From assembly GCF_013315695.1 (NCBI RefSeq), contig NZ_CP054353.1: 64,000 nucleotides of DNA. One strand, 5' to 3'. The stretch comes from Escherichia coli. Lineage in GTDB: Bacteria; Pseudomonadota; Gammaproteobacteria; Enterobacterales; Enterobacteriaceae. Shown piece after piece: positions 10,649-61,950 of this stretch (positions are counted from its first letter, which is position 1; the number at the start of each line of letters is the position of its first letter). The position numbers and the translations under genes were made by a program. The notes under the pieces were generated by a model that saw nothing but the letters and a program-made list of their open reading frames with translations, was not told the origin of the DNA and searched no databases.

Positions 10649-12304
10649 TTAATCAGATTTAATCTGCGCGCGCGGCGGATATTTTTTCAGGATCTCCATA
10701 TACGCGTGCATTTCGGTCTGTAGCGGTACACCCATTGGGATATGGCGCACGCCGATAGAGTCGCTTTCCTGCGGATCGGTGTACAGGTTAAACACCGACG
10801 ATCCCGCCGTTTGCATTACTGTGCCGGTGAATCCACCCTGATACCCGCTCTGGGTATACGCGTACGGTTGCTGGATCAGGACGTGATACTTGAACTCATC
10901 CATACGCACAGCAGAAAGTTTACCGTTGAGGAAGTAGTGCTCGGCCTTACGGTTAGACTGACCATTTGTTCCCAGGAAGAAAGATGTCTGGTCCACACCA
11001 TCGATAAAGGTGGTTTTCGGTACTAAATTCGCTACTTTCGCCCCAGGATGCCCCGCCAGATCCAGCGCCGTAGGGAAGAGATCCGCCAGATCGACAATGC
11101 CGTCAGATTTACGCGGTTGGATCATGCCTTTCCAGTAAACGAAGGTTGGCACACGAACGCCGCCTTCCCATGTAGAACCTTTCGCACCGCGGAACGGCGT
11201 GCGACCGTGCGGCGGTACTTCCGCTTCCGGTCCGTTATCGGAGGTAAAGACGATTAGCGTGTTATCCAACTGACCATTTTTCTCCAGTGCTTTATACAGA
11301 TTGGCGAAGATATCGTTCATCTCCACCATGCAGTCGCCGTAAGAGGTGCGCGCCGGAGAGCTACCCGCATATTTCGCATTTGGGTAGTTATCGAAGTGAC
11401 AGCCGCGAGTGCCGTAGTAGAGGAAGAAAGGCTTATCGCTCTTCGCCATCTTGTCGAGGAACTTAACGCCATATTCCATCCAGCGTTGATCCAGGTCTTC
11501 CATATATTTCGGCGTAATGTCGGCAATGGCTTCCTGTTCACCGCCGCGCACGGCATGAACGTCATCTTTGCTGAATGGCAGTTTTTGGATGTATTCAGAA
11601 CGATCCGGGCTCAGGGCGACTTCCGGGTTGACGTGAACATCACGCCATTCGGTATACATATCGGATACCGAGTTAAAGCCGCGGAAATCATCAAAGCCAA
11701 CGTTCTGCGGCTGCGACTCTTTGTTTTCCCCCATATGCCATTTCCCGATGGCCTGAGTGACGTAGCCCTGATCGTGCAGCAACTGCGGCAGAGTGGTTAA
11801 CCCTTGCAGACCGCCCGGTTGCCCGTACATTGGCGGCATCAGAATGCCGTGGTGGATGGAGTATTGTCCGGTAAGAATCGTGGCGCGGGTTGGGGAAGAA
11901 CTCGGTTGAGAATACGCCGAAGTTAAAATCAGCCCCTGGCTGGCAACGGCGTCGATATCTGGTGTAGGGTTACCCACCGCCACGCCGCCGCCGTTAAAGC
12001 CAACATCCATCCAGCCCACATCATCCAGCAAGAAAACAACCACGTTCGGTTTCTTACCGGTTTTTTTCTCAAGTTCTGCCAGCTTCTGCTGGGTTTCTTT
12101 GTCTTGTGCAGGATGCTGCATCACCGGCATCATGTTGTCGGCAATAGTGGTCGCCGGTTTAACCAGATACTGGTTTGGGTGATCGTATCCGGCAAAGCCT
12201 TTGCGTGCGGTGGCGGTTGACGGGGTATCTGCTGCGTTGGCCATGAGTGGAAGAGCGGCGGCGACAGCTACAACAAGAAGTTTGGGTGAAAACGAAAATT
12301 CCAT
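10649..12304 (-). CDS. aslA: arylsulfatase-like protein with signal peptide
   Basis: 551 aa; sulfatase family features, N-terminal signal sequence. Confidence 0.9.
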
Positions 12305-44553: not shown

Positions 44554-45450
44554 TCAGGAACAGAAAATTAATTGCGGATTTCTTAAATATTCTATGCACC
44601 ACTGACAGGCTTTGCCCATACCATCGGAACGAGCGGCAAGAAATAACTTGGTGGCGTGTTTATGTTCGCGCATTGGCTTTTTAAGCAATTTACCGCTGTT
44701 CAATAACGGCAATGCCAGATGATGTGGAATATAACCAATACCGACGTTTTGTTCTATTAAGGCGATTGCCGTAGCGAAGTCAGGAACAAAAATGGGTTTT
44801 TGTCCTTCCAACAACCAGGCTTGCATCGGGGGGAAGTTAACGGAGGTATCGCGGATACAAACCGCTGGATAATGACGCAATTCACTGTTTTCTAATGGAT
44901 GCCGCTTCGCTGCCAGTGGGTGGAGTGGGCTGACGACAAAATCCCATTCCATTTGTCCGACCGGTTCGCTAATGATGCCTTCACTGCTTGGCACTGCATG
45001 AGGAGCACCGTAGACCAGATCGGCACGCTTACTGTACAGCGCATCCCAGCAGCCGTTGTATACCTCAAGATCTACCGTCAGTGTTGTTGATGTGAATTGC
45101 CGTTCAAAATCTCGAATAAATGCCACCAGCAAATCACCAGGAATAATATTGTTCACCGCAATTGTCAGTTCACGCTCAATACCATCGTGAATCAGCACTG
45201 TGTTGCGCTTTAATGCTTCCAGGTCGCCAAGAATAGTTTTGCTATGTTCGATGAAGTAACTTCCCGCTGGCGATAATTCAATATAGCGTCCCTTACGAAT
45301 GAACAGTTCAACGCCCAGGCTCTCTTCCGCTTTCTTGATGGTGTAACTGATAGCGGAAGGGACTTTATTTAACTGCTCGGCTGCGGTGGTAATGCTCTGG
45401 TGTCTGGCGACCAGATGAATAACACGAAGCGTTTCGTCTGAGATGAACAT
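44554..45450 (-). CDS. LysR-family transcriptional regulator
   Basis: 298 aa; N-terminal wHTH (ITTAAEQLNKVPSAISYTIKKAEESLGVELF) and LysR substrate-binding domain. Confidence 0.8.
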   Translation of the reverse strand: MFISDETLRVIHLVARHQSITTAAEQLNKVPSAISYTIKKAEESLGVELFIRKGRYIELSPAGSYFIEHSKTILGDLEALKRNTVLIHDGIERELTIAVNNIIPGDLLVAFIRDFERQFTSTTLTVDLEVYNGCWDALYSKRADLVYGAPHAVPSSEGIISEPVGQMEWDFVVSPLHPLAAKRHPLENSELRHYPAVCIRDTSVNFPPMQAWLLEGQKPIFVPDFATAIALIEQNVGIGYIPHHLALPLLNSGKLLKKPMREHKHATKLFLAARSDGMGKACQWCIEYLRNPQLIFCS

Positions 45451-45527
45451 AAGGCTCCCTGGTCAGTGGTAAAGTGGCTGAATCTCTCCAGATTCAGCCG
45501 TAATCATTGCCTGAGTATACCCAGGAA

Positions 45528-46751
45528 TTAGCGGTGTTGACTTGCCTGACTGAGAATCGCATACGCGATACATGCCACCAGAATCGAGTCTACCGAAGGG
45601 ATCGTCGTCAGGGTGAATAAGCCTTTTACGGTCATAAAGCCAACCGCTGCGCCTATGATCCATGCTGCGAATGTCAGCACTTTAATCTGTGACTCCTGGG
45701 CTAACACTGACTCTTGATAGCCATTACGGCGATAAAGGAAAAAGTCAGCGATATAAATTCCGGCAACGGGTGGCGTGGCGATACCCAGGAACAGCAGAAA
45801 CGGAATAAACCACGCCATAATATCCATACTGCCTACGATGGCGGAAAGGATACCCAGCGCCACGGTAATCTGCCATTTGGGAAAGCGGGTAAGCAGTGTG
45901 GAAACCACCAGCGTGCCCTGGAACATATTGCCCGCGTTACCGGTGACGCAGGCGAAAATCAACAACAGCGCCGCAGGCAGAACCGCACCGAATACCGCCA
46001 TCGCACCCAGTAAAGATCCCTGACCACTAATGGCGCTCGGCGTTGCACCCGCCCAGTAGAGCAGAGGGTAGGCAACCAGAAACGTCACGCCTGCGGCAAT
46101 CAGCGCATGTTTGCGGTTATGTACAAAACTACCGAAATCAGGCAGTGTGGCAACCAGCACAATAATGGTGCCAACAACGGTGGAAACGGCGACACCTGTA
46201 TTCATCTCCACAATCGCCGCTGGTACTGCCACTTCGGTATGGGTTGCCACATAGAGGATGTAACACAGCACCAGCGCGATAACCGGCACGGCAACCTGGG
46301 CAATTTTTCCCAGAACGGCAAAGCCAAATGCCGTAGAGGCGACAAAAATGACACAGCCAGCCGCCACTAACAGTGCCAGTGGAACTTCCAGTCCATGTTG
46401 AGCCAGTAAGTCATGTACCGAATGACCAAACATATTGGCGGTAACGGCAATCCAGCCGAACAGACTTATCGCCATCAAAATGTTAATGGCGATGGCCCCT
46501 TTTTCGCCAAACGAATATTTCACAATGCCATACGTTGGTAGGCGGGCTTTTTCTCCCACGCTAATGGTGATGGCTGAAAGTAAGGTCAGAATGACGCCGC
46601 CTAACAATACGACGCTAATTAAACTGCCGCTGGAAAGTTGATTGCCGAGGCTTGAGGATGACAACAGCACAGGTGTGACGGCAATACCCAGCAAAATCAT
46701 GGCAATACGCAATCCTGATGCCGTATTCAGATTCTCTTCTTTTTTACGCAT
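45528..46751 (-). CDS. NCS1-family (CodB-like cytosine/nucleobase) permease
   Basis: 407 aa polytopic; resembles CodB architecture (…VGEKARLPTYGIVKYSFGEKGA…). Confidence 0.7.
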   Translation of the reverse strand: MRKKEENLNTASGLRIAMILLGIAVTPVLLSSSSLGNQLSSGSLISVVLLGGVILTLLSAITISVGEKARLPTYGIVKYSFGEKGAIAINILMAISLFGWIAVTANMFGHSVHDLLAQHGLEVPLALLVAAGCVIFVASTAFGFAVLGKIAQVAVPVIALVLCYILYVATHTEVAVPAAIVEMNTGVAVSTVVGTIIVLVATLPDFGSFVHNRKHALIAAGVTFLVAYPLLYWAGATPSAISGQGSLLGAMAVFGAVLPAALLLIFACVTGNAGNMFQGTLVVSTLLTRFPKWQITVALGILSAIVGSMDIMAWFIPFLLFLGIATPPVAGIYIADFFLYRRNGYQESVLAQESQIKVLTFAAWIIGAAVGFMTVKGLFTLTTIPSVDSILVACIAYAILSQASQHR

Positions 46752-46776
46752 AGTATGTTCCCTTTATAAATGCGCG

Positions 46777-47166
46777 TTACACAGTATGAAAATGCCCGGT
46801 GTATTTGCGCCAGCTGCCCAGTTCTGTAATTTCCCGTTGGCCTTCGGTCAGCCAGTTTTCTGCCAGTACGCCCAGCACTTCGCTACCATCGGCAAGTTTG
46901 ATTTTGCCAATTGCCAGCCCAGCGGGTTCGCTCATTAACAGAGCGGCAAAACTGGCCAGCGGTAATTGCCAAATTTCTACGTCGACGTGTGTTCCTCCTT
47001 CATTCACGCGAATCATTCCCGGATGGCGATCATTAATACTCCACAACCGGTAATGGGCGTCAGTTCGGTCTTCACGGACAAAAATACCGCCCGCTTTTTG
47101 CATATTTGGGTTGAGTTCCAGGCCGCGCATCAGCGTTCCGTTAACGGCTAAAAGCGTTGTAGTCAT
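46777..47166 (-). CDS. gamma-glutamylcyclotransferase-like (AIG2 / allophanate hydrolase C-terminal domain-like) protein
   Basis: 129 aa; N-terminal LLAVNGTLMRG motif typical of GGCT fold. Confidence 0.5.
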   Translation of the reverse strand: MTTTLLAVNGTLMRGLELNPNMQKAGGIFVREDRTDAHYRLWSINDRHPGMIRVNEGGTHVDVEIWQLPLASFAALLMSEPAGLAIGKIKLADGSEVLGVLAENWLTEGQREITELGSWRKYTGHFHTV

Positions 47167-47182
47167 TGTGTTCTCCAGAGAA

Positions 47183-48139
47183 TTAAAGGGTTATCCATGT
47201 ACCGCTCTGATGCGCCAGGGCTGCTTTTATGGTTTGCGGTGAAGTAATCAGGCCGCTGGCCTGTTTGCCTTGTTGCTGGCTGGCATTGATGAAATCAACA
47301 ATGGCTTCCACTTTGGGTTGCATACTGCCGACACCAAACTGACCTTCCCGCAACAGCGTTTGCGCTTCGGCAACGCTGATAGCGTCGAGCCACTGTTGTT
47401 GTGGTGTACCAAAGTTAATCGCCACTTTTTCTACACCGGTGGGGATCACCAGCAGATCTGCGCCTAACTGACTGGCGAGCAGCGCGGAGGCCAGATCTTT
47501 ATCGATCACGGCTTCCACACCTTTCAGTTGTTGCCCGTCTCGCACCACCGGAATACCGCCGCCGCCGCAGGCAATAACCAGATATCCCTGGCGCACCAGG
47601 TGAGCGATGGTGTCGTGCTCAATAATTTCCAGTGGTGCAGGAGAGGGAACTGTACGCCGCCAACCACGCCCGGCGTCCTCCATCAGCGTCCAGCCGAGTT
47701 GTTGTTGGCGTTGTTGGGCCGTTGCTTCATCGAGAAACGCGCCAATTGGTTTACTGGGGCTGGCGAAAGCATCGTCATGTGGGCTGACTCGCGTTTGTGT
47801 CACCAGGGCAATTACCGGTTTGTTTATGCCACGGCGAGCCAATTCGTTATGCAGTGCTTTCTGGAACATGTAGCCAATTGCACCTTGTGTATCACCCACG
47901 GCGTAATCAAGTGGAACCGGAGAAACTTCGTTACTGGCGAGTTCAGAGCGGCGCAGAATAAAGCCCACCTGCGGGCCATTACCGTGGGTTAGTACCAGGT
48001 CCCATCCGGCTTCAACCATATCAACGATATGCTGCACGCTTTCCATCACTGCAACATATTGATCGGGAATACTATTGCGTTGCTCGTCCTGAATGAGCGC
48101 ATTGCCGCCAACCGCGACGACAGCCAGTGGCTTAACCAT
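47183..48139 (-). CDS. carbamate kinase-like protein
   Basis: 318 aa from MVKPLAVVAVGGNAL...; amino-acid kinase family; start overlaps upstream stop (ATGGTTAA). Confidence 0.8.
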   Translation of the reverse strand: MVKPLAVVAVGGNALIQDEQRNSIPDQYVAVMESVQHIVDMVEAGWDLVLTHGNGPQVGFILRRSELASNEVSPVPLDYAVGDTQGAIGYMFQKALHNELARRGINKPVIALVTQTRVSPHDDAFASPSKPIGAFLDEATAQQRQQQLGWTLMEDAGRGWRRTVPSPAPLEIIEHDTIAHLVRQGYLVIACGGGGIPVVRDGQQLKGVEAVIDKDLASALLASQLGADLLVIPTGVEKVAINFGTPQQQWLDAISVAEAQTLLREGQFGVGSMQPKVEAIVDFINASQQQGKQASGLITSPQTIKAALAHQSGTWITL

Positions 48140-49556
48140 GATGGTTCTCCTTTGCGACGATCTCCGCCAGTGCACGTACAGCGGCGACAAAACAGGCCAT
48201 CGGCGCAGTGGTGATCCCGGCACCAATTTGCCCGACCCCCGCTTGTTTGTGGGCGATACCCGTATTGATGACCGGTAAAATGCCGCGATCGGTCACTTTA
48301 CGCGCATCAATCCCTGCTGCGGTGGGGGCAAAATTGAGGGCTGGAAGTGTAAATGCGGGGTTACCGCCGAGGGTGATGGCTTGCATCCGACGGCTGTTAT
48401 TGGTGGCATCGGCAGGGGTGCCTCCCACAAATTTGACGATCGCCGGAGACGACGCCATCGCGAAGCCACCCACACCTGCGGTTTCAGTAATTGCGCTATC
48501 ACCCAGGTCAGCAGCAGCGTCGTCAACGCCAAATCCGGGGAAGAACAGACCTTCAACGGCATTGGCAGGAGCCTGGAACCAGCGATCGCCAGTACCGGAA
48601 ATCCGAATACCAAAATTCACCCCGTTACGCGCCATCACCGTAACCATTGAACTGAACGGTACATTGGCGGCGGCATCCATCATTGCTTTACAGGCGGCCA
48701 TCGACAGATTGAGGAAGAAGTGATCGTTACCGGTGATAAATGCCACGACGCGCTGGATATGTTCCTGTGGAAGAGAGCAGGCCAGCAATGCCGGGAGCAG
48801 GCGCTTAATCAGCAAACCGGTAGCGGCAGCATTGCGGTTATGAACTTCATCCCCCATATGCAGCGCCTGCGCCATTAATGGCTTGAGTTCCAGCTCGCCG
48901 TGTTGTGCGATTGCTGCTTTCATTGCCGGCGCCAGTTCATCGCGCATCCAGGCCAGACGATTGAGAACTTCATCGTTATTGGCGCCAAAACGGAGAACCT
49001 TACCCAGACCTTCATTGAAATTGCTAAAAGTACGATGGCCGTTGGTTTTGTTTTCTACCACCCATAACGGCATCGACGGGCTGATGATGCCTGCCATTGG
49101 GCCAACCGCGTGATAATGATGACAAGGGGCAAGGTCGATTTCGCCTGCGTTTATTTGGTTTTCAGCGTCTTGCTGGCTGGTGGCCCAACCTTCGTACAGC
49201 ATGGCACCAATAATCGCCCCTTTTACCGGACCACACATCTCTTCCCAGGCAATCGGCGGGCCAGAGTGCAAAATACGTTTTTGTTCAGCCATTGCTGGAA
49301 TGGCCTCTTTAGCGAGCATGACATCCACCAGCACGGGCTGTGCTTCGAGATAACGTGTCATGGCGATTTGGTTGGCATTTTCTACCAGGGGATGACGTAG
49401 CAACGATGCCAGATCCAATCCAGCGTCAATATCGCCTTGTGCTGGTGGCTGCCAGTTGAGTGCAATTGCGCTTCCCCCGGCATGTTGAATATTGTCAGCA
49501 AAACTGTGTAGTCCCGCGTTCACGACCTTCAAAGGCTGATTAAATAAGGTATTCAT
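48132..49556 (-). CDS. DUF1116 protein (YlbE/YahG-like)
   Basis: 474 aa from MNTLFNQPLKVVNAG...; ATGA start/stop overlap with upstream FdrA-like gene. Confidence 0.75.
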   Translation of the reverse strand: MNTLFNQPLKVVNAGLHSFADNIQHAGGSAIALNWQPPAQGDIDAGLDLASLLRHPLVENANQIAMTRYLEAQPVLVDVMLAKEAIPAMAEQKRILHSGPPIAWEEMCGPVKGAIIGAMLYEGWATSQQDAENQINAGEIDLAPCHHYHAVGPMAGIISPSMPLWVVENKTNGHRTFSNFNEGLGKVLRFGANNDEVLNRLAWMRDELAPAMKAAIAQHGELELKPLMAQALHMGDEVHNRNAAATGLLIKRLLPALLACSLPQEHIQRVVAFITGNDHFFLNLSMAACKAMMDAAANVPFSSMVTVMARNGVNFGIRISGTGDRWFQAPANAVEGLFFPGFGVDDAAADLGDSAITETAGVGGFAMASSPAIVKFVGGTPADATNNSRRMQAITLGGNPAFTLPALNFAPTAAGIDARKVTDRGILPVINTGIAHKQAGVGQIGAGITTAPMACFVAAVRALAEIVAKENHHG

Positions 49557-51112
49557 GCGTTTAGCCCCTTTTTCTGCAACTGAGTCTGTGCAACGGTGCT
49601 GGCCCATAACGCCGCCTGTGCATTGCTGCTGGCGATGATGACCCCTGCATTTTGTAGTGCGCTTATCTGCTGACTGCGTATTTGCGGATCAGCTTCCGTT
49701 CCGCAAACGTGCGCAATCAGCAACGGTGCGTTATTCATGTCGATGTGTGAAAGTTGGTCCAGTAATTCGCTGGCAGGCGTCGTGGAAGCGCCATAACCAA
49801 GTACCAGGTCGAATAACACGACGGCAGTGTGTGAGTCGTTGAGTTCGTTGAGCAGACGTTGATTGCGCAGAGTCGGGTCGATCATTGGATGCGGTTTGCC
49901 ACGGGTGAAATCATCGTCGCCCATATCGATCAACGTGTGATCTTCGCTTTGCCAGATATTTGCCAGAGCACGATTACCCGCAACTGGCGTATTGGAGGCT
50001 GCGATGAATCCCTTTTGTTGGCAGATAAGTTGCGCTTCGTAGCAGAAGGTTCCTCCGGCGAAAACACCGCGTATCGCCTGGCGATGGGCTGGCAGGCGCT
50101 GGCAGGCGTTTTGTAACATTGTGAGATCGTCGCAGGAAATTTCGGTCTCGATAGTCGGAAGTGGTTGATCATTCAGTAACGCCACGGCGATATTTGCGGC
50201 GCTGGCAAGTGTGGTGGCCGCGGTGATATTGGGACGTGCCAGATCATGCGGATTCGCACCGAGGAAATTCACCACCACGGGTTTTCCACAAGCCTCGGCA
50301 CGCTCCAGAATAGTCCGGGCAACGATCGGTGAAGGCGGTTTTGAAATAAGCACAATCACGCGAGTTTCATCGTCTTGCGCCAGCGCATCTAAAGCGAAGA
50401 GCATCGATATTCCACCAATCTCTTCACTGAGATCATGTCCGCCTGTTCCCAACGCCTGAGAAATACCCGCTCCGAGCTGGTCGATTCGGCAAGTCACTTC
50501 CTGTAACCCGGTGCCTGACGCGCCAATAACACCAATTGCTCCGCGTTTCACCACATTAGCGAAGCCTAACGGAATGCCGTTAACAATGGCGGTTCCACAG
50601 TCAGGTCCCATTACGATGCGCTGACGTTCTCGGGCAAGCGTTTTGATGGATTTTTCCTGCACGATACTGACGTTATCGCTGAACATCATCACGTTCATTC
50701 CGAGGTTTAACGCTTTAATTGCTTCGGCGGCGGCGTAGTCTCCCGGTACAGAAATGAGTGCCAGGTTGGCTTCGGGCTCGGCTTCCAGTGCCATTTCCAG
50801 GCTGACCTTTTCCGGTGATTTAATGCCACTATCCGTTTCATCATCGGGTTTGCTGGTCAGACGTTGCTGGGCCAGTACCAGTGCTTCATTGCAAATATCT
50901 TCTTCACCCATGACTGCAATCACTAAATCATTGGGACTGGCGTTGATTTCGTTACCCAGACCCGCATCGCGCAATTGTTCGAGATTATTGGGCGTTCCCA
51001 TGACGACCGAGGCCTGTTGAATACCGGGCAACTTGCTGATTTGCGCGGAAATCTGCATCAGAGAAACTGAGTCCTGATAAAGATTACTGAAAACTTTATA
51101 TTTAACTTTCAT
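49553..51112 (-). CDS. FdrA-like protein (succinyl-CoA synthetase alpha-like CoA-binding/ligase domains)
   Basis: 519 aa; FdrA/YahF-like. Confidence 0.75.
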   Translation of the reverse strand: MKVKYKVFSNLYQDSVSLMQISAQISKLPGIQQASVVMGTPNNLEQLRDAGLGNEINASPNDLVIAVMGEEDICNEALVLAQQRLTSKPDDETDSGIKSPEKVSLEMALEAEPEANLALISVPGDYAAAEAIKALNLGMNVMMFSDNVSIVQEKSIKTLARERQRIVMGPDCGTAIVNGIPLGFANVVKRGAIGVIGASGTGLQEVTCRIDQLGAGISQALGTGGHDLSEEIGGISMLFALDALAQDDETRVIVLISKPPSPIVARTILERAEACGKPVVVNFLGANPHDLARPNITAATTLASAANIAVALLNDQPLPTIETEISCDDLTMLQNACQRLPAHRQAIRGVFAGGTFCYEAQLICQQKGFIAASNTPVAGNRALANIWQSEDHTLIDMGDDDFTRGKPHPMIDPTLRNQRLLNELNDSHTAVVLFDLVLGYGASTTPASELLDQLSHIDMNNAPLLIAHVCGTEADPQIRSQQISALQNAGVIIASSNAQAALWASTVAQTQLQKKGLNA

Positions 51113-51206
51113 GCTGTTACGCCTGTTTCATTCCGCCCGATAGCAAAATTCGGGCAAAGTATCCCCGTGTAGCCCCATAAACGGGCTACGGGAGAAAAGG
51201 TTGAAA

Positions 51207-52067
51207 TCAATTCATGGTGTTCAGGGTTCGAAAGCCATGCAGCATTCCTGCAAGGCAATCTACTCCTGACGTTGCGCCAAATTGCATGACCTGTTCTGCA
51301 CAGGATGCGATTGTCATTGCCGATGCGCTCCCAACCAGTTGTGCGAGTAACTGGCAAATCGGTTCTGAAAAATGTCCCTGAAGCGCACGCTCCAGATAAT
51401 GACGACTGATATCCGTGGTGTTGTGCGCATGTTGATCAATTGCCTGCTGCAACCGGTATTGATGATCGGCAAGTGGTGCAGGGAGTTGCCATAACCAGAG
51501 CGCTGCCAGATAGCCCAACAAATAGTCATCTCCATCGGGCGTTAAGCCTTTACCAAAGCCGATCAGTTGTGGCACCTGGCGTTCCAGCGCATCTGGATGC
51601 TCCATAATCGCTAATCCCTGGTGCGTGAGACTATCCGGCAGGTGCAATGTGCTTTGAACGTTATGTTCCAGACAAAATAAAAGCCGTTGCGATGCCATCG
51701 TTGGGTAGTGCTGGAAAACCAAAGGGAATGCCTCAAGTGTCAGCATTCCCCCCACAAATGGCGACTGCCAGAGCGTTGCGTTATCGAGCGCCACACAAAA
51801 TCGAGGTGTCCGCAGTAAGCCTGGGGTTAACTGAATGGGATCTGAATGGGCAATCTCTCTTCGCCAGTCCCAACATTCAGGTAGCCAGACTCTGGCAGCA
51901 TCAGGGAGATTCAGATACGTTTGCGCACACAACAGAGTGATGAATGTTCCCGCGTCTGAATACAGATTTACCGCATGTTTAAAAGCGCTATGCAGACGTA
52001 AATCTTGCGTTTCATTCTGCGGGAAAATATATCCCAACGACGATGCGCAAAGCGTAACCTGTACCAT
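51207..52067 (-). CDS. DUF2877 protein (YlbF/YahE-like)
   Basis: 286 aa; co-occurs with DUF1116 and FdrA-like genes. Confidence 0.65.
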   Translation of the reverse strand: MVQVTLCASSLGYIFPQNETQDLRLHSAFKHAVNLYSDAGTFITLLCAQTYLNLPDAARVWLPECWDWRREIAHSDPIQLTPGLLRTPRFCVALDNATLWQSPFVGGMLTLEAFPLVFQHYPTMASQRLLFCLEHNVQSTLHLPDSLTHQGLAIMEHPDALERQVPQLIGFGKGLTPDGDDYLLGYLAALWLWQLPAPLADHQYRLQQAIDQHAHNTTDISRHYLERALQGHFSEPICQLLAQLVGSASAMTIASCAEQVMQFGATSGVDCLAGMLHGFRTLNTMN

Positions 52068-52072
52068 CGGCG

Positions 52073-52741
52073 TTAGCCTTCCAGACCTGCAATAATGGCT
52101 TTGGAATCAGTAACCCAACCGAAAATGGCACCTTGTGCTTTGATCATCTCGAGGGCGTATTTCTGGAATTCCGGGAAATAGGAGCCGACACAATCTTCCG
52201 GGATAATGCATTCATAGCCACGATCATTTGCTTCGCGCACGGTGGTGGTTACGCAAACTTCGGTTGTAACACCACAAACTATCAGCGTCTTGATACCGTG
52301 GTTTTGCAAAATCAGATGTAAGTCGGTTTGATAAAACGCGCCTTTGCCAGGCTTATCAATCACCGGTTCGCCTGCCACCGGGTACAGTTCAGGAATGATG
52401 TCATGACCTGCTTCACCTCTGACCAGAATGCGTCCCATCGGTCCTGGTTCACCAATAAAGGTTTTTCCGCCGCGCGTCAGTTTGGCTGGCGGGCAGTCGC
52501 TTAAGTCTGCACGATGGCCTTCACGAGTATGAATAACCATAATTCCTTTTTGACGTGCGGCTGCCAGCACCTCTGTACATGGTGCGATAGCCGTGCGTAC
52601 CAGTGAAACATCATTGCCCAGTGCCTCACCGAAGCCCCCTGCTTCGACAAAGTCACGCTGCATGTCGATCATGACCAGTGCAGTTGTGCGCGGATCAAAA
52701 GGTAATTCAAAGGGTTGAGCCTGAAAAATGGATTGCGTCAT
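52073..52741 (-). CDS. isochorismatase-family cysteine amidohydrolase (RutB / N-carbamoylsarcosine amidase-like)
   Basis: 222 aa; ALVMIDMQRDF and LIVCGVTTEVCV motifs of isochorismatase-like hydrolases. Confidence 0.8.
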   Translation of the reverse strand: MTQSIFQAQPFELPFDPRTTALVMIDMQRDFVEAGGFGEALGNDVSLVRTAIAPCTEVLAAARQKGIMVIHTREGHRADLSDCPPAKLTRGGKTFIGEPGPMGRILVRGEAGHDIIPELYPVAGEPVIDKPGKGAFYQTDLHLILQNHGIKTLIVCGVTTEVCVTTTVREANDRGYECIIPEDCVGSYFPEFQKYALEMIKAQGAIFGWVTDSKAIIAGLEG

Positions 52742-54068: not shown

Positions 54069-54833
54069 ATGTCCAAGTCTGATGTTTTTCATCTCGGCCT
54101 CACTAAAAACGATTTACAAGGGGCTACGCTTGCCATCGTCCCTGGCGACCCGGATCGTGTGGAAAAGATCGCCGCGCTGATGGATAAGCCGGTTAAGCTG
54201 GCATCTCACCGCGAATTCACCACCTGGCGTGCAGAGCTGGATGGTAAACCTGTTATCGTCTGCTCTACCGGTATCGGCGGCCCGTCTACCTCTATTGCTG
54301 TTGAAGAGCTGGCACAGCTGGGCATTCGCACCTTCCTGCGTATCGGCACAACGGGCGCTATTCAGCCGCATATTAATGTGGGTGATGTCCTGGTTACCAC
54401 GGCGTCTGTTCGTCTGGATGGTGCGAGCCTGCACTTCGCACCGCTGGAATTCCCGGCTGTCGCTGATTTCGAATGTACGACTGCGCTGGTTGAAGCTGCG
54501 AAATCCATTGGCGCGACGACTCACGTTGGCGTGACAGCTTCTTCTGATACCTTCTACCCTGGTCAGGAACGTTACGATACTTACTCTGGTCGCGTAGTCC
54601 GTCACTTTAAAGGTTCTATGGAAGAGTGGCAGGCGATGGGCGTAATGAACTATGAAATGGAATCTGCAACCCTGCTGACCATGTGTGCAAGTCAGGGCCT
54701 GCGTGCGGGTATGGTGGCGGGCGTTATCGTTAACCGCACCCAGCAAGAGATCCCGAATGCTGAGACGATGAAACAAACCGAGAGCCATGCGGTGAAAATC
54801 GTGGTGGAAGCGGCGCGTCGTCTGCTGAAATAA
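54069..54833 (+). CDS. udp: uridine phosphorylase
   Basis: 253 aa [28 protein letters not shown]... Confidence 0.95.
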
Positions 54834-54837
54834 AAAA

Positions 54838-54859
54838 CGCTCCCCAACTTCGGGGAGCG
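54838..54859. terminator. hairpin between convergent udp and tctA-like gene (possible bidirectional terminator)
   Basis: CGCTCCCC-AACTT-CGGGGAGCG flanked by A-run upstream and T-rich downstream. Confidence 0.6.
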
Positions 54860-54866
54860 ATATCAG

Positions 54867-56357
54867 TTATTGACGCCGTAAACGCATTATTTTGCGGATT
54901 ATTGGCGTCAGTAGCGTAAAGGCTGCCAGAGTCAGCAATGCCAGAGTGATCGGTCGGGTATACAGAAAGTCGAGTGAACCACCAGAAAGCGACAGCGCAC
55001 GGCGAAAATTACTTTCCGCCATTGGCCCCATAATCAATGCCAGCACTACGGGTGATGCCGGATATCCTCCTTTCTGCATGAAATAGCCCACCACGCCTGC
55101 AATCAGCATAATGCCAACATCAAACAGGCTATTGTTCAACGCATAAGTCCCGACCACACAAAGTGCGAGGATCATCGGTGTGAGAATATTGCCGGGGATC
55201 TTCACCACGTTACCGATGACTTTCAAAGAGAGCAGTCCAAGAACTAGCAGCATGAAGTAACAAAAGATCATGCCGACAAACAGTGTATAAACCATATCGC
55301 CGTGGTCGGTAAACATCAGCGGGCCTGGTTGCATTCCCTGTAACGTTAACGCGCCCAGCATGATGGCGGTTACCGCATCGCCAGGGATCCCCAGCGTCAG
55401 CATAGGTAACAATGCGCCACCGGTGCAGCCATTCGCGCCTGCCTCACAGGAGGCCACAGCTTTAATTTCACCCTTACCAAAGTTTTCTGGTGTCTTACTG
55501 AAACGACGAGTTTCGTTATAGGCAACAAAAGCTGCAATATCCGCCCCCGCACCGGGGATCATGCCGATAAAAACCCCTAATCCTGATGAGCGCAAAATGG
55601 TTAATGCAATGCGGCGTAGTGTTTGCCAGGGCAGTAACAGACTGCCGATAGCCACCTTCGCCCCCTGACGAATTTGCTGGTTTTGCTCCATAGAGCGGAA
55701 TGCATCTGAAGCAGCAAATAAACCAATCATCACCGGGATAAATGGCACATTCATCAGCTCCACAAATCCACCTGTAAACCGTGGAAAACCGCCCATTGGA
55801 TCAAGGCCTATCGTTGCGATCAGCAATCCGCCAACCCCGGCAATCAGCCCTTTAATCAGTGACTCACCGGAAATACTGGCAATAATGCTCAGTCCGAAGG
55901 TTGCCAGGGCGAAGGACTCCGAGGCACTAAATTTCAGCGCCCAACTGGCAAGTACCGGAGAGAGAAACATCAGCACGATAATGCTGAGCGTTCCGCCACT
56001 AAAGGAAGAGAACGTGGCGGCACTCAATGCCAGCCCTGCTTTTCCCTGTTTCGTCAGCTCATAACCATCAATAGCGGTGGCTGCGGCGGCAGGCGTTCCG
56101 GGAATTTTGAGCAAAATTGCGGTGATAGAACCACCGTAGACGCCACCAAAAAAGACGCCGCAAATCATCAACAAGCCAGAAACAGGCTCCATGCCGTAGG
56201 TGAAAGGCAGCAAAATCACCACACCCATGGTCGCTGTCAGACCAGGCAAAGCGCCAATCACAATACCCAGCATCACCCCAAAAGTGGCAAACAGCAGCGC
56301 CTGAGGATTATTGAGTAATGTCGAAAAACCCTGAGTTAAAAGTTCACTTTCAAACAT
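54867..56357 (-). CDS. tripartite tricarboxylate transporter large permease TctA-like
   Basis: 496 aa polytopic, TctA family. Confidence 0.8.
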   Translation of the reverse strand: MFESELLTQGFSTLLNNPQALLFATFGVMLGIVIGALPGLTATMGVVILLPFTYGMEPVSGLLMICGVFFGGVYGGSITAILLKIPGTPAAAATAIDGYELTKQGKAGLALSAATFSSFSGGTLSIIVLMFLSPVLASWALKFSASESFALATFGLSIIASISGESLIKGLIAGVGGLLIATIGLDPMGGFPRFTGGFVELMNVPFIPVMIGLFAASDAFRSMEQNQQIRQGAKVAIGSLLLPWQTLRRIALTILRSSGLGVFIGMIPGAGADIAAFVAYNETRRFSKTPENFGKGEIKAVASCEAGANGCTGGALLPMLTLGIPGDAVTAIMLGALTLQGMQPGPLMFTDHGDMVYTLFVGMIFCYFMLLVLGLLSLKVIGNVVKIPGNILTPMILALCVVGTYALNNSLFDVGIMLIAGVVGYFMQKGGYPASPVVLALIMGPMAESNFRRALSLSGGSLDFLYTRPITLALLTLAAFTLLTPIIRKIMRLRRQ

Positions 56358-56369
56358 TGCTGGCCCCTG

Positions 56370-56879
56370 TTATTCGAAAAATGTGCCGACAGGCAATGGC
56401 ACCTGTAACGCTTCGACAAACAGCAACCAGAGGATTGCCGTTAACAGCAGCGCAATACCCGGTGTGAGTACCCATCGCCTGTAGCCCATCAACGTCATAA
56501 TGACGATGAGGAAAACAGGAGTAGTAATGAGATAACCGCAGTAGCTCATCGCCACAATATAAAATGCGGTTGCCGCAATTCCTGTTGCCGTTTTCCTGAA
56601 TGCCGGTTTTTCCTGTGCGTTGGCGCAAGAGGCTGGTTTTGCCTGCAAAAGATCGCGTATCACCAGCAAGACAGCGAGCACAATCAGGGCACAGGCATAG
56701 AAGGTAGGGAAGGCACTTGCACCGGGATCCGTTTCAATGGCAGTTGCTGGAAAATCAGCGGCATTAATCATCACCGCGCCAGCAACCACACAAAGTAACA
56801 GCGCCACCACCATCGTTGATGAAAGGCGCTTGCGGTGCGGTACGGCGAGTTGAGCAACAGACTGTTTTGTGTTCATCAA
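56370..56879 (-). CDS. TctB-like small permease subunit
   Basis: 169 aa, ~4 TM, between TctC- and TctA-like genes. Confidence 0.7.
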   Translation of the reverse strand: MMNTKQSVAQLAVPHRKRLSSTMVVALLLCVVAGAVMINAADFPATAIETDPGASAFPTFYACALIVLAVLLVIRDLLQAKPASCANAQEKPAFRKTATGIAATAFYIVAMSYCGYLITTPVFLIVIMTLMGYRRWVLTPGIALLLTAILWLLFVEALQVPLPVGTFFE

Positions 56880-56892
56880 CCGTACCTCAGGT

Positions 56893-57867
56893 TTATTTTT
56901 TCAGGCCCAGGCGAGTCAGCAACTCGTCAAAGTACTTTTCCTGTTCGCTGATTTGGGTCTGGAAGCTGGCAGCGTCAAGCCATGCATAGTTGAGATTCAA
57001 CTTTTGCAGTGCATCCTGGAATGCAGGCTCTTCAGCCGTCTCTTTTGCTGCCTTTGCCAGAACATCCACCACATCCTGCGGCGTTTTTTGCGACACAATC
57101 AGGCCGCGCCAGGTGCCGATGGAGAGATCAACGCCTTTCTCTTTTAACGTCGGGACGTCAGGCATGGTTTTCATTCGCTCATCCGCCATCACTACCAGTG
57201 TCTTCAGCTTGCCGCCATTCACATGGTTGATAACTTCTCCTGGGCTTACGGAAACCGCTTCAATGTGCCCGCCTAACAGGCCTGTAATGGCAGGGGCTGC
57301 GCCGTCATACGGGACATGAGAAAACTTTGCGCCCGTTTTGTCTTCCAGTGCAGCTGCCGCCAGATGCCAGATAGCTCCGGTGCCTGAGTTACCAATGCGT
57401 ACTTTTCCGGGATTCGCTTTGGCGTAAGTCATAAATTCTTCATAGCTATTCCACGGCGCATCGGCACGGACTGTGATAGCAGCCGGATCCGCATTCAGAC
57501 GGGCAATGGGTTTAAAGTCGCTGGTTTTAAAACGCACCATTCCGAGGCTGGGAAGGGTGGTCAGTTCAACTGTGCCTAAACCAATTTTGTAACCGCCAGG
57601 GCGGGCAGCGGCGATTTCACTCAGGCCGATAGCACCGCCTCCGCCAGGTTTATTGATAACCCCGATGCTGACGGGTAAATGGTTTTTGGCGGCATCAGCA
57701 AAGGCACGGGCAACCAGATCCGTACCGCCTCCGGCAGCGTAGGGAACGACTAACTCGATCTGTTTGGTTGGGTAGGAGGCTGCCTGTACAGGCGCAATGC
57801 TGAGGGCAGCGCCTGCAAGAAGTACCATTGCAGCCATTTTTTTCGGTAAGGTAAGATGTTTTATCAT
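56893..57867 (-). CDS. TctC/Bug-family periplasmic substrate-binding protein
   Basis: 324 aa with signal peptide. Confidence 0.8.
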   Translation of the reverse strand: MIKHLTLPKKMAAMVLLAGAALSIAPVQAASYPTKQIELVVPYAAGGGTDLVARAFADAAKNHLPVSIGVINKPGGGGAIGLSEIAAARPGGYKIGLGTVELTTLPSLGMVRFKTSDFKPIARLNADPAAITVRADAPWNSYEEFMTYAKANPGKVRIGNSGTGAIWHLAAAALEDKTGAKFSHVPYDGAAPAITGLLGGHIEAVSVSPGEVINHVNGGKLKTLVVMADERMKTMPDVPTLKEKGVDLSIGTWRGLIVSQKTPQDVVDVLAKAAKETAEEPAFQDALQKLNLNYAWLDAASFQTQISEQEKYFDELLTRLGLKK

Positions 57868-57891
57868 TGCTTTTATATCCTTATTTATCAG

Positions 57892-58521
57892 TTAGTTGCT
57901 ATTTAAATTGTTCCATGCGTTCATAAACAGTACTGCATTTTCATAGACTTGCTCTGGCGTCATGCCGGGGTGATATAGCGCAGAACCGAGGCCAAAGCCG
58001 TTTGCGCCGTGGCTCAGATAACGCGCCATGGTTTCCGGTGTGATACCGCCAACCGGTAACATCGGAACGGATTGTGGAATAACCGCACGCCAGGCTTTGG
58101 TAACTTCTGGCGTAATTTGTTCAGCCGGGAACAGCTTGATGGCATTAGCACCATGTTCAATGGCAGCAAAGGCTTCGGTGGGCGTGGCGACGCCAGGCGC
58201 ACAATACATACCCAGCGCACGGGCGCGACGGATCACCGCAGTATCGCAATGCGGCATCACGATAATCTGGCCCCCAGCCTCTTTAACCGCAACCACCTGC
58301 TCTACCGAAAGCACAGTTCCGGCTCCGACCAGGCAGTCCTTAGGCAGGGCGTCGCGCAGTAAACTGATACTTTGCAACGCCTCCGGCGAGTTCATAGGAA
58401 TCTCAATCAGGCGGAATCCGGCGGCGTACAGTTTTTCACCGATGGCGACAATCTCATCCGGTTTCACGCCGCGTAAAATGGCGACTAACCCGGTTTTTTG
58501 CAAAAGCGTCTTAAATGGCAT
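57892..58521 (-). CDS. 2-dehydro-3-deoxy-6-phosphogalactonate/KDPG aldolase (DgoA/Eda family)
   Basis: ~209 aa from MPFKTLLQKTGLVAILRGVKPDE...; clear similarity to DgoA. Confidence 0.8.
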   Translation of the reverse strand: MPFKTLLQKTGLVAILRGVKPDEIVAIGEKLYAAGFRLIEIPMNSPEALQSISLLRDALPKDCLVGAGTVLSVEQVVAVKEAGGQIIVMPHCDTAVIRRARALGMYCAPGVATPTEAFAAIEHGANAIKLFPAEQITPEVTKAWRAVIPQSVPMLPVGGITPETMARYLSHGANGFGLGSALYHPGMTPEQVYENAVLFMNAWNNLNSN

Positions 58522-59515
58522 GGGTACATTCCCTGGCGTTGGTGGACAGTAACCCGGCAGCGTGGGCGATTCGCCATAATCCCTGTTCAGTGGCATTAGG
58601 AATGGCGTGTATCTGTCTGTCGGGAAAAACGTGGCTGAATGCTTGTGAATAGCGGCTGTTCAGATTTGCGCTACCGATTAAAGCGATCGGTGTTGTGGCG
58701 GGTAAATCACGTAGCAAACTGGATGCCAGACCACATAATTCATGGCCTATCAGTAATCCGGAAAGGTAATCCCCCTGCGAGGACGACGTAAGATTACTGG
58801 TCAGCAGGCGCGAACGGGTCGAAAACAGCGTCGATAATAATCCGGTCTGATGATGCTCTTGTGCTGCTGTCAGCCCGTGGGTGAAGGCATCCCAGTGCGG
58901 TTCATCTCCAGGATGCATGGTGGCACCGAGAATCGAATGGCGGGATAAAACATCAAATAACTCGCCCGTCATAAAGGTTCGGAAATCGGTAATGGTGTTG
59001 TTTTCAACTACTGCCCATTTCGCATGTGTGCCGGGTAAGCCTATCAGCACTGGCATACCCTGATGGATCGCGTTTTGCAGGGCCGGTTCCATCGAGATAG
59101 CACCGAAGATTTGTGTCTCTTCGCCACGCATCACTTCGGGCATTTCACCTTCTTTAATCACGCCAGGAATGATGTGCAGCATTGTCTGCTGCTGGTGGAT
59201 AACAGGCGTCAACTGCTTCGCCAGACCCTCGAGAGTGACCGGGCAAGGTAAATAAGCTGCTGGTTGCCACCCTTGCGCACTGCCGAGCATGCCGCAAGCC
59301 AGTACCGGGCATGGGGTTTGTGCCAGCCAGTCGCCGCAGACACGTAAAAACGTATCGTGGAAAGCGTCCTCACGTGTTGCTGCCTGGGAGGGTAATTTCA
59401 TGATCCCCCAGGGGAATTCACGTTTTTCTTGTGGATTTGGTGATTCGTCAAAACGCCATGCCCGAAGCGATGACGTTCCCCAGTCCAGGGCAATAAATGA
59501 GGGTGCTCCCGGCAT
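58511..59515 (-). CDS. 2-dehydro-3-deoxygalactonokinase-like (DgoK family)
   Basis: 334 aa; ALDWGTSSLRAW N-terminus as in DgoK. Confidence 0.7.
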   Translation of the reverse strand: MPGAPSFIALDWGTSSLRAWRFDESPNPQEKREFPWGIMKLPSQAATREDAFHDTFLRVCGDWLAQTPCPVLACGMLGSAQGWQPAAYLPCPVTLEGLAKQLTPVIHQQQTMLHIIPGVIKEGEMPEVMRGEETQIFGAISMEPALQNAIHQGMPVLIGLPGTHAKWAVVENNTITDFRTFMTGELFDVLSRHSILGATMHPGDEPHWDAFTHGLTAAQEHHQTGLLSTLFSTRSRLLTSNLTSSSQGDYLSGLLIGHELCGLASSLLRDLPATTPIALIGSANLNSRYSQAFSHVFPDRQIHAIPNATEQGLWRIAHAAGLLSTNARECTHAI

Positions 59516-59538
59516 TAGTCGTTTCCTTTAATCATGGT

Positions 59539-60306
59539 TTATTTATCTTTGCGGACGTGCTTACCCCAGCCCAGTTCAGCGGATATCTCTTCTGCACAGG
59601 ATTTGACGTAAGGTGCCAGTTCTTCCAGACGCGCCAGCGACATATACGTGGTGGTACTGGCGACAGAAATAGCCGCCACAATTTCATCCCGGGCGTTGTA
59701 AACCGGCGCTGCAACGCAACGGATAGTCGGCTCGTTCTCTTCCAGATCAAAAGCAAAACCACTGGTGGCATAACGACGCATGTTCTGAATAAATGCGCCC
59801 AGTTTTGTTTCATCACCACAGGTCTTAAACAGCGTGCGCCACTCTTCTTCTGTTCGGTTGAGGATCAATGCCTTGCCGATGCCGGTGATTGCCAGTGGCA
59901 TGCGATGGCCTGGGCGTGAGCGCATTTCCAGCCCGCGCTGACTGTTGATCTTCTCCAGATACAGCACTTCGTCGCCTTCAACGATCCCCAGATGCACGGT
60001 GTCCAGGGTGTAACGGGCAAGGCGTTGCAAAACGGGCTGGGCAATTTCGTACAGCGAGGTGCTTTCCAGTGCTCTGGCACCGAATTCGATCAGTTTGGCA
60101 CCCAGTTGGTAGCCCTGCGTTGGGACATGGCGCAGGTAGCGTTGTTCCACCAGAACGGTGACTAAACGATGGGTTGTGCTCCGGGTCGTGCCGGTGAACT
60201 CGCCGATACTTTTTAGGTCATGGCAGCCGTTATAAACAGCATTAAGAACCGCCAGTCCACGTAATAACGTTTGTGCGCCTGCGGTGGTTGAAGAGGTTTC
60301 TGCCAT
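59539..60306 (-). CDS. IclR-family transcriptional regulator
   Basis: 255 aa from MAETSSTTAGAQTLLRGLAVLNAV...; AGGAG RBS 6 nt before ATG. Confidence 0.8.
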   Translation of the reverse strand: MAETSSTTAGAQTLLRGLAVLNAVYNGCHDLKSIGEFTGTTRSTTHRLVTVLVEQRYLRHVPTQGYQLGAKLIEFGARALESTSLYEIAQPVLQRLARYTLDTVHLGIVEGDEVLYLEKINSQRGLEMRSRPGHRMPLAITGIGKALILNRTEEEWRTLFKTCGDETKLGAFIQNMRRYATSGFAFDLEENEPTIRCVAAPVYNARDEIVAAISVASTTTYMSLARLEELAPYVKSCAEEISAELGWGKHVRKDK

Positions 60307-60366
60307 ACGTTTCTCCTGATGATATTGCTGAAGTGTTCCACATAATGACGTGGGGAAAAGGTGATA

Positions 60367-60404
60367 TATCCCACAATATAAACTCCATCTCATATTGTGG
60401 GATA
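60367..60404. promoter_or_regulatory. candidate operator: 13-bp perfect inverted repeat with 12-bp spacer
   Basis: TATCCCACAATAT-N12-ATATTGTGGGATA located 61-98 bp upstream of the IclR start. Confidence 0.4.
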
Positions 60405-60522
60405 AAATAATGAAAATTAACGATCGTTTTGCGTAGCGCCTCGCAGGAAACTTCTTTCAAACTGGACGTTTGTACAGCACAATTCTATTTTGTGCGGGTA
60501 AGTTGTTGCGTCAGGAGGCGTT

Positions 60523-61950
60523 GTGGATTTCTCAATCATGGTTTACGCAGTTATTGCGTTGGTGGGTGTGGCAATTGGCTGGCTGTTTGCCAGTTATCAA
60601 CATGCGCAGCAAAAAGCCGAGCAATTAGCTGAACGTGAAGAGATGGTCGCGGAGTTAAGCGCGGCAAAACAACAAATTACCCAAAGCGAGCACTGGCGCG
60701 CTGAGTGCGAGTTACTCAATAACGAAGTGCGCAGCCTGCAAAGTATTAACACCTCGCTGGAGGCCGATCTGCGTGAAGTAACCACGCGGATGGAAGCTGC
60801 ACAGCAACATGCTGACGATAAAATTCGCCAGATGATTAACAGCGAGCAGCGCCTCAGTGAGCAGTTTGAAAACCTCGCCAACCGTATTTTTGAGCACAGC
60901 AATCGCCGGGTTGATGAGCAAAACCGTCAGAGCCTGAACAGCCTGTTGTCGCCGCTACGTGAACAACTGGACGGTTTCCGCCGTCAGGTCCAGGACAGCT
61001 TTGGTAAAGAAGCCCAGGAACGTCATACCCTGACTCACGAAATCCGCAACCTCCAGCAACTCAACGCCCAGATGGCCCAGGAAGCGATCAACCTGACGCG
61101 TGCGCTGAAAGGCGACAATAAAACCCAGGGCAACTGGGGCGAGGTAGTATTGACGCGGGTGCTGGAGGCTTCCGGTCTGCGTGAAGGGTATGAATATGAA
61201 ACCCAGGTCAGCATCGAAAATGACGCCCGCTCGCGGATGCAGCCGGATGTCATCGTGCGGTTGCCGCAGGGAAAAGATGTGGTGATCGACGCCAAAATGA
61301 CGCTGGTCGCCTATGAACGTTATTTCAACGCTGAAGATGACTACACCCGCGAAAGCGCGCTACAGGAACATATCGCGTCGGTGCGTAACCATATCCGTTT
61401 GCTGGGACGCAAAGATTATCAACAGCTGCCGGGGCTGCGAACCCTGGATTACGTTCTGATGTTTATTCCCGTTGAACCCGCTTTTTTACTGGCGCTTGAC
61501 CGCCAGCCGGAGCTGATCACCGAAGCGTTGAAAAACAATATCATGCTGGTTAGCCCGACTACGCTGCTGGTGGCGCTGCGCACTATCGCCAACCTGTGGC
61601 GTTATGAGCATCAAAGCCGCAACGCCCAGCAAATCGCCGATCGTGCCAGCAAGCTGTACGACAAGATGCGTTTGTTCATCGATGACATGTCCGCGATTGG
61701 TCAAAGTCTCGACAAAGCGCAGGATAACTACCGCCAGGCAATGAAAAAACTCTCTTCAGGTCGCGGAAATGTGCTGGCGCAGGCAGAAGCGTTTCGCGGT
61801 TTAGGGGTAGAAATTAAACGCGAGATTAATCCGGATTTGGCTGAACAGGCGGTGAGCCAGGATGAAGAGTATCGACTGCGGTCGGTTCCGGAGCAGCCGA
61901 ATGATGAAGCTTATCAACGCGATGATGAATATAATCAGCAGTCGCGCTAG
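60523..61950 (+). CDS. rmuC: DNA recombination protein RmuC
   Basis: 475 aa; GTG start; coiled-coil N-terminal half. Confidence 0.9.
   Translation: MDFSIMVYAVIALVGVAIGWLFASYQHAQQKAEQLAEREEMVAELSAAKQQITQSEHWRAECELLNNEVRSLQSINTSLEADLREVTTRMEAAQQHADDKIRQMINSEQRLSEQFENLANRIFEHSNRRVDEQNRQSLNSLLSPLREQLDGFRRQVQDSFGKEAQERHTLTHEIRNLQQLNAQMAQEAINLTRALKGDNKTQGNWGEVVLTRVLEASGLREGYEYETQVSIENDARSRMQPDVIVRLPQGKDVVIDAKMTLVAYERYFNAEDDYTRESALQEHIASVRNHIRLLGRKDYQQLPGLRTLDYVLMFIPVEPAFLLALDRQPELITEALKNNIMLVSPTTLLVALRTIANLWRYEHQSRNAQQIADRASKLYDKMRLFIDDMSAIGQSLDKAQDNYRQAMKKLSSGRGNVLAQAEAFRGLGVEIKREINPDLAEQAVSQDEEYRLRSVPEQPNDEAYQRDDEYNQQSR

Follow-up and report, generated by a model that had tools for sequence, protein, structure and literature searches.

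Several described systems for the uptake and degradation of sugar acids resemble the locus reported here. The dgoRKADT operon of Escherichia coli, present in 5008 of 5426 complete genomes of the species, includes a regulator, a kinase, an aldolase, a dehydratase and a symporter. The enterobacterial Kdg regulon joins kdgT, kdgK and eda under the regulator KdgR. In K-12, external 2-keto-3-deoxyhexonates fail to induce their own uptake (2024 review, PMC11219438). Tripartite tricarboxylate transporters (TTTs) have been described from Salmonella, Halomonas and Vibrio. Here we describe a six-gene operon between udp and rmuC in a stretch of 64,000 nucleotides from E. coli (RefSeq assembly GCF_013315695.1, contig NZ_CP054353.1), the whole of which is referred to below as the window. 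All parts of this operon, or islet, come from known families, and judged from the sequence their combination is not a dgo operon and its regulator is not KdgR. We give about even chances to the reading that it is a self-contained, IclR-controlled operon that would import an exogenous keto-deoxy sugar acid directly.

The islet was noted in 2012 in avian pathogenic E. coli (APEC) O1 as '6 ORFs with unknown functions' (PMC3349570). This remark is the only mention recovered in a full-text literature search, which found no paper that assigns a function to the locus and no already characterised pathway. Matches to papers on R. sphaeroides and Taurinivorans proved unrelated to the locus.

The interval between udp and rmuC contains six intact open reading frames (ORFs), all on the minus strand, at window positions 54867-60306. 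RefSeq calls the same six genes in a record with 100% identity, that of the UK blood-culture isolate E. coli AF3. The first gene of the operon is iclR (59539-60306), which encodes a regulator of 255 aa that matches IclR-family models; its start is that of RefSeq. It is followed by genes for a DGOK-family 2-keto-3-deoxy sugar-acid kinase (58511-59515, 334 aa) and a class I aldolase of the 2-keto-3-deoxy-6-phosphogalactonate (KDPGal) type, a paralogue of DgoA (57892-58521, 209 aa). The remaining genes are tctC, for a periplasmic binding protein of the Bug family (56893-57867, 324 aa), tctB, for the small membrane subunit (56370-56876, 168 aa, start per RefSeq), and tctA, for the large permease subunit (54867-56357, 496 aa), whose product RefSeq names 'tripartite tricarboxylate transporter permease'. 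In the mechanically made ORF list two frames are too long at the 5' side; the starts lie at M26 in the aldolase frame and at M29 in that of the regulator. Intergenic spacing ranges from -11 nt, where the 3' end of the kinase gene overlaps the aldolase start, to 24 nt, and tctC, tctB and tctA are contiguous with 12-16 nt between them.

A first-pass annotation of this DNA had described six co-directional minus-strand genes between udp and rmuC, an IclR, DgoK-like, DgoA-like and TctCBA gene set, and the lack of a dehydratase. The ORF list and the RefSeq calls agree with the first of these claims. The gene set is borne out by full-length family matches for the kinase and the transporter and by the model NF006600 for the aldolase, and no dehydratase is encoded in the segment. 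NCBIfam has no models for the TctABC, DGOK and SGL proteins, and its annotation is uninformative there.

The aldolase scores 319.8 bits against the KDPGal-aldolase model NF006600, for which the cut-off is 207, and falls below the cut-offs of all Eda models. It matches the structure 2V81 at 1.5e-49, and its identity is 46% with K-12 DgoA and 26% with Eda. In the alignment the Schiff-base Lys126 (AIKLFP) and the catalytic Glu37 (IEIPMNSP) are retained. The protein has the DgoA-type pair A11-I12 in beta-1 (LVAILRG) and V154 in beta-7 (LPVGGI). The beta-1 pair and the V154 site before GG have been shown experimentally to set the stereoselectivity for KDPGal or 2-keto-3-deoxy-6-phosphogluconate (KDPG) (PMC4915726). 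P-V-G-G is found in every DGOK-linked orthologue, and P-T-G-G in Eda and in the PfkB-linked aldolase of Brevibacillus discussed below. These residues make a 2-keto-3-deoxy 6-phosphate of the 4R ('galacto') series the likely substrate of the aldolase.

The kinase matches PF05035 over its full length (positions 1-281 of 281, 3e-89). Its closest structures are 3R1X (2e-37) and 3T69 (2e-35), and the N-terminal ATP-binding motif D-x-G-[ST]-[ST] reads 'LDWGTSSLRAW', compared with 'IDWGSTNLRAW' in 3R1X. It is 35% identical to K-12 DgoK, a paralogue with which it coexists in E. coli. The low identities to DgoK (35%) and DgoA (46%) led us to reject a recent duplication of dgoKA.

The adjacent tctA (PF01970, 2e-150, full length), tctB (PF07331, 1.9e-21) and tctC (PF03401, 5e-55) place the transporter in the TTT family. 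The TctC translation begins with a typical Sec signal peptide (...APVQA|AS). Binding proteins of TTTs share the loop motif P-F-x-A-G-G-x-x-D (PMC8556258), which reads P-Y-A-A-G-G-G-T-D after the signal peptide of TctC; the sole change, F to Y, is also found in 4X9T. This ligand-free Polaromonas TctC is the closest solved structure (1e-99), and its ligand is listed as unknown (PMC5812351). The second closest, 25HK (5e-64), is the TTT-C protein of Vibrio sp. C42, which binds unsaturated alginate oligosaccharides. Eleven residues have been implicated in the binding of uronate oligomers by the Vibrio protein, and TctC of E. coli retains 7 of them, including G24, G183 and T225. Relatives with 55-57% identity occur in Variovorax and Ramlibacter as orphan binding proteins within sugar-acid clusters. 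The Variovorax cluster contains a galactarate dehydratase equivalog (932 bits), a uronate-dehydrogenase-like protein, lactonases, a short-chain dehydrogenase/reductase (SDR) and a tripartite ATP-independent periplasmic (TRAP) system, and the Ramlibacter cluster contains GarD/UxaA-family and enolase-superfamily dehydratases. The sugar-acid neighbourhoods and the ligand of 25HK together suggest that sugar acids are the ligands of the TctC clade, with the galacto and uronate series prominent among them.

The regulator is, by its model scores, an IclR-family protein other than KdgR. It reaches 143.7 bits against the BhcR model (cut-off 350) and 129.3 against KdgR (cut-off 275), and is also below the cut-off for PcaR. 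An AGGAG lies 7 nt upstream of the iclR ATG. Further upstream, at 60367-60404 and 61-98 nt from iclR, is a perfect inverted repeat with the structure TATCCCACAATAT-N12-ATATTGTGGGATA. The 13-nt half-site occurs in the 64 kb window in these two copies and nowhere else. Paired half-sites, roughly ATAT-N2-3-(G/T)GG(G/T)A, are found upstream of iclR in six enterobacterial cassettes, those of Escherichia whittamii, Klebsiella indica, Phytobacter, Enterobacter, Brenneria and Buttiauxella. The inverted repeat is a candidate operator, and the operon would then be autoregulated. A simple sigma-70 scan upstream of iclR found no minus-strand promoter. An Rfam search of the segment gave no family at E <= 0.1, so no riboswitch or small RNA was found.

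The gene order IclR-DGOK-aldolase-TctC-TctB-TctA is also found in E. whittamii, K. indica, Phytobacter and Buttiauxella. Identical order is seen in Enterobacter hormaechei, K. oxytoca, Brenneria roseae, Uliginosibacterium, Rhodoferax fermentans, Azospirillum thermophilum and a soil metagenome-assembled genome (MAG), so that the cassette reaches the Alpha- and Betaproteobacteria. In Cohaesibacter the cassette is present with a decayed kinase gene. There is no dehydratase within 7-9 kb of the cassette in at least 11 proteobacterial loci, and none that belongs to the cassette was seen across 13 related loci. The cassettes of Brenneria, Uliginosibacterium, Buttiauxella and K. indica are bare, with no helper genes.

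Other versions carry additional genes. An orthologous SDR gene (61-84% identical between lineages) lies upstream in divergent orientation in Rhodoferax, the soil MAG and Azospirillum. Rhodoferax and the soil MAG also have a gene for an SGL-type lactonase after tctA, and the two lactonases are 77% identical to each other. The SDR/lactonase positions are 4512-5288 and 11184-12098 in locus L049, 4076-4852 and 12190-13095 in L062, and 4360-5157 in L050. In Enterobacter hormaechei and K. oxytoca (L051 and L058, both at 3079-5258) the divergent upstream genes encode an iron-dependent alcohol dehydrogenase (Fe-ADH) and a second DGOK, and a second IclR gene follows tctA. The extra genes in these two species suggest an additional branch of oxidoreduction and phosphorylation.

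Related transporters are found in two Firmicutes together with different enzymes. Brevibacillus sp. has a cluster (L055, 7089-13680) in the order IclR, TctC, TctB, TctA, PfkB kinase, Eda-type aldolase and GhrB-like 2-hydroxyacid dehydrogenase, and its TctC is 66% identical to that of E. coli. The kinase has here undergone non-orthologous displacement, and the transporter looks as if it had been transferred between phyla. In Thermovorax the TctC is 55% identical and comes after UxaB, a UxaA-like dehydratase, KduD, Eda and a PfkB kinase for 2-keto-3-deoxygluconate (KDG). As read from these gene sets, the order of import, phosphorylation and cleavage is conserved despite the swap to an unrelated kinase family. 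The replacement of the kinase under a retained logic is the strongest support for import that needs no dehydratase. The first-pass annotation had proposed that an already dehydrated 2-keto-3-deoxy acid is imported, a proposal supported at the level of gene content by the dehydratase-free loci of at least 11 proteobacteria and by the two Firmicutes.

The proposed mechanism is as follows. TctC would capture the acid in the periplasm, and TctB and TctA would carry it across the inner membrane. The DGOK-family kinase would then phosphorylate the terminal hydroxyl. The KDPGal-type class I aldolase would cleave the product to pyruvate and D-glyceraldehyde-3-phosphate. The IclR protein is predicted to bind the inverted repeat that precedes iclR and to be released by the keto-deoxy acid or its phosphate, in a manner like the control of kdgT, kdgK and eda by KdgR. 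Our best guess for the substrate, made with less assurance than the scheme itself, is the 4R acid 2-dehydro-3-deoxy-D-galactonate (D-KDGal). The substrate, the direction of regulation and the dispensability of an unlinked dehydratase are the parts that we infer. As the dgo operon is already present in most strains, a second kinase and aldolase pair, with a regulator and a transporter of its own, is sensible only for a substrate that dgo neither takes up nor senses.

Several points weigh against direct import of D-KDGal. Characterised TTT substrates mostly have two carboxylates (PMC5812351), and KDGal has one. Nor is it obvious where extracellular D-KDGal would come from in nature; possible sources are release by other microbes, or the oxidation of 3-deoxy-osones by the SDR and lactonase of the soil versions. 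The SDR, the SGL lactonase, the Fe-ADH and the second DGOK of some lineages hint that a precursor is oxidised or reduced first. The KDPG-type enzymes in the two Firmicute versions indicate that the transporter clade is not bound to one stereoisomer. The kinase, with 35% identity to DgoK and no equivalog model, may have another sugar specificity. None of the papers recovered examines the locus experimentally.

Rather unlikely, in our estimate, is the alternative that the substrate is another keto-deoxy or uronate-derived acid and that the 'galactonate' names are misleading. It could be KDG, L-KDGal, a 2-keto-3-deoxy-pentonate, a 3-deoxy-ulosonic acid of greater length, for example Kdo, or a product derived from oxidised 3-deoxy-osones. 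The modest identities of the kinase to DgoK and of the aldolase to DgoA leave room for such a substrate. In the Firmicutes the related transporters are accompanied by KDG-type enzymes, in Thermovorax beside the pectin genes for UxaB, a UxaA-like dehydratase and KduD, and TctC keeps the 7 of 11 uronate-oligomer-binding residues of the Vibrio protein. The accessory SDR, lactonase, Fe-ADH and 2-hydroxyacid dehydrogenase genes, which differ by lineage, point in the same direction. However, the NF006600 score and the presence of both KDPGal determinants in every DGOK-linked orthologue argue against KDG and L-KDGal, both of which are 4S. The DgoA-like length and the GG phosphate-loop region of the aldolase favour a six-carbon 6-phosphate.

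It is unlikely that the transporter instead imports D-galactonate or its lactone, with an unlinked DgoD or a promiscuous dehydratase of the IlvD/Edd or enolase type making KDGal. The islet kinase and aldolase would then form a second, differently regulated lower branch of the De Ley-Doudoroff pathway. Their DgoK and DgoA types fit this role, dgoD is nearly universal in E. coli, and D-galactonate is a known extracellular, host-derived compound (PMC10507020). The SDR and SGL lactonase of Rhodoferax and the soil MAG, and the SDR of Azospirillum, resemble a sugar 1-dehydrogenase and lactonase pair that yields aldonates. The canonical dgo operon, however, always has dgoD, and some 11 proteobacterial loci of the cassette have no linked dehydratase. 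D-galactonate would also induce dgoRKADT anyway and make the islet kinase and aldolase redundant. The bare cassettes of four lineages, which lack helper genes of any kind, are a further argument against galactonate uptake.

The whole segment is found in 1452 of 5426 complete E. coli genomes (approximately 27%) and is absent from 73%. Its interior is matched in 1457 genomes, with at least 99% identity in 1427 of them and coverage of at least 80% in 1452. BL21, REL606, the type strain ATCC 11775, NC101, F11 and ST131 strains are among the carriers. Genomes that lack the segment have 140 nt between udp and rmuC, and the adjacency of the two genes in K-12, cited in the first-pass annotation, is thereby confirmed for K-12-type genomes.

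The accessory segment spans 54834-60427, with 5594 bp in place of the 55-nt udp-rmuC spacer of K-12-type genomes. Comparison of the two alleles puts the left break directly after udp '...CGTCTGCTG' and the right break at '...TTTTGCGTAGCGCC'. Islet-side udp alleles have an extra Lys codon and end in ...RRLLK* (window 54829-54833), whereas K-12-type alleles end in ...RRLL*. This one-codon difference puts the left junction of the polymorphism within the last udp codons. The 55-nt spacer contains the udp terminator of K-12-type genomes. On the islet side a strong hairpin at 54838-54859, with a 9-bp stem of which 7 pairs are G-C, is followed on the minus strand by TTTTTTATTT. It is common to the convergent udp and tctA and is the sole terminator at the operon end. 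The flanking genes udp (54069-54833, plus strand) and rmuC (60523-61950, plus strand) both score above their equivalog cut-offs.

A degenerate remnant of 1.4 kb lies between udp and rmuC in E. coli HS-02 (NZ_CP172818.1; L061, 3509-4919). It consists of the 3' part of the kinase gene and iclR, is approximately 81% identical to the intact copy and has many short deletions. It is strongly G-poor, with 168 G; the intact copy has 395 over a stretch that is slightly longer. The proteins of the flanking genes are 100% identical, and the remnant was found in a single assembly. It could be genuine decay or an assembly artefact, and it is given little weight because of the single assembly and the strange depletion of G. 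The 16 nt after udp resemble each other in HS-02 and in the 'empty' K-12 spacer (15 of 16 matching). In a position-free local alignment to the remnant, the K-12 spacer scored no better than shuffled controls as a relic of the kinase gene.

That E. coli has the operon as a cryptic or decaying relic, with no phenotype and en route to loss, is highly improbable: its absence from most complete genomes, the HS-02 remnant and the decayed kinase gene of Cohaesibacter would fit this, but the six frames are intact here, the copies in other E. coli genomes are nearly all complete and at least 99% identical, and the retention of the cassette with its operator-like repeat across enterobacterial genera despite a protein divergence of 48-90% points to purifying selection.

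The gene content and junctions of the segment show no direct repeats, tRNA, integrase or transposase. Its G+C content of 52.1% is the same as the window mean, and a search of 72,556 plasmids gave no match. None of the marks of a mobile genomic island (a mobility gene, a tRNA or repeat boundary, odd composition or plasmid carriage) was found. The udp/rmuC site holds the same cassette in four further species of enterobacteria, which belong to different genera. In Escherichia whittamii, Klebsiella indica and Buttiauxella warmboldiae it is flanked by udp and rmuC, and in Phytobacter massiliensis it adjoins udp. In the last species (L006, 6549-7591) the cassette directly adjoins ubiE, and no rmuC homologue was detected between them. 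The cassette proteins are 48-99% identical to those of E. coli, compared with 82-100% for the flanking Udp and RmuC. A recent horizontal insertion was rejected on these grounds. The shared site and the divergent cassette proteins fit better with an ancestral locus and its loss, and the segment is probably an old enterobacterial locus that most E. coli lineages have lost. Replacement of one allele by another by way of the conserved flanks may have been an alternative route.

The window contains a second strain-variable insert, at 44554-52741 between metE and ysgA, which are directly adjacent in K-12-type genomes. This minus-strand cluster of 8.2 kb encodes a LysR regulator, a cytosine permease, an allophanate-hydrolase-related protein, the carbamate kinase ArcC and a YlbE-family protein. 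It also encodes FdrA, an AllH-like oxamate carbamoyltransferase subunit and a cysteine hydrolase. A different island, the 16 kb tkt1 island, reportedly occupies the metE-ysgA site in APEC O1 (PMC3349570).

The operon is carried by important lineages of E. coli, including the type strain, laboratory strains, extraintestinal ST131, NC101 and F11. If the proposed function is correct, it would add one more nutrient to the strain-variable repertoire of carbon sources that shapes colonisation of the gut and urinary tract. It would give a reason why a cell with dgoKA keeps a second kinase and aldolase pair. The large and mostly orphan Bug/TctC family would gain a class of sugar-acid ligands with a link to a defined pathway. 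On the boldest reading, which we consider unlikely, no TTT before the islet transporter would have had specificity for a keto-deoxy sugar acid with one carboxylate, and it would also be the first TTT known to function in E. coli; the operon could then aid the niche fitness of B2/extraintestinal pathogenic (ExPEC) and B-type strains. Because BL21 and REL606 have the operon and K-12 does not, the proposal is directly testable in standard strains.

Compared with dgoRKADT, the islet has the same adjacent and overlapping genes for a DGOK-family kinase before a KDPGal-type class I aldolase, and the same predicted products, pyruvate and glyceraldehyde-3-phosphate. It differs in the lack of the dehydratase DgoD, in an IclR-family rather than a GntR-family regulator (DgoR), and in a binding-protein-dependent transporter, TctCBA, in place of DgoT, a symporter of the major facilitator superfamily. 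The three-gene architecture and the Pfam families of the transporter are those of the TTTs of Salmonella (TctCBA, citrate), Halomonas (TctABC, linked to glucarate and galactarate) and Vibrio sp. C42 (alginate oligosaccharides). Unlike these systems, which are coupled to tricarboxylic acid (TCA) cycle, aldarate or lyase genes, the islet transporter is coupled to a kinase and an aldolase and has no TctDE two-component regulator. The Brevibacillus and Thermovorax clusters share with the islet binding proteins of 55-66% identity and the order of import, phosphorylation and cleavage, but their kinase belongs to an unrelated family and their aldolase has the KDPG-type Thr. The Kdg regulon (KdgR, kdgT, kdgK, eda) is the closest analogy in logic, with IclR-family control, uptake, phosphorylation and cleavage, and no dehydratase step. 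The islet differs from it in the placement of its genes in one operon, in a DGOK rather than a PfkB kinase, in a TTT rather than KdgT, and in an aldolase of the KDPGal (4R) rather than the KDPG (4S) type. In this comparison, the islet would be the galacto-series counterpart of the Kdg regulon.

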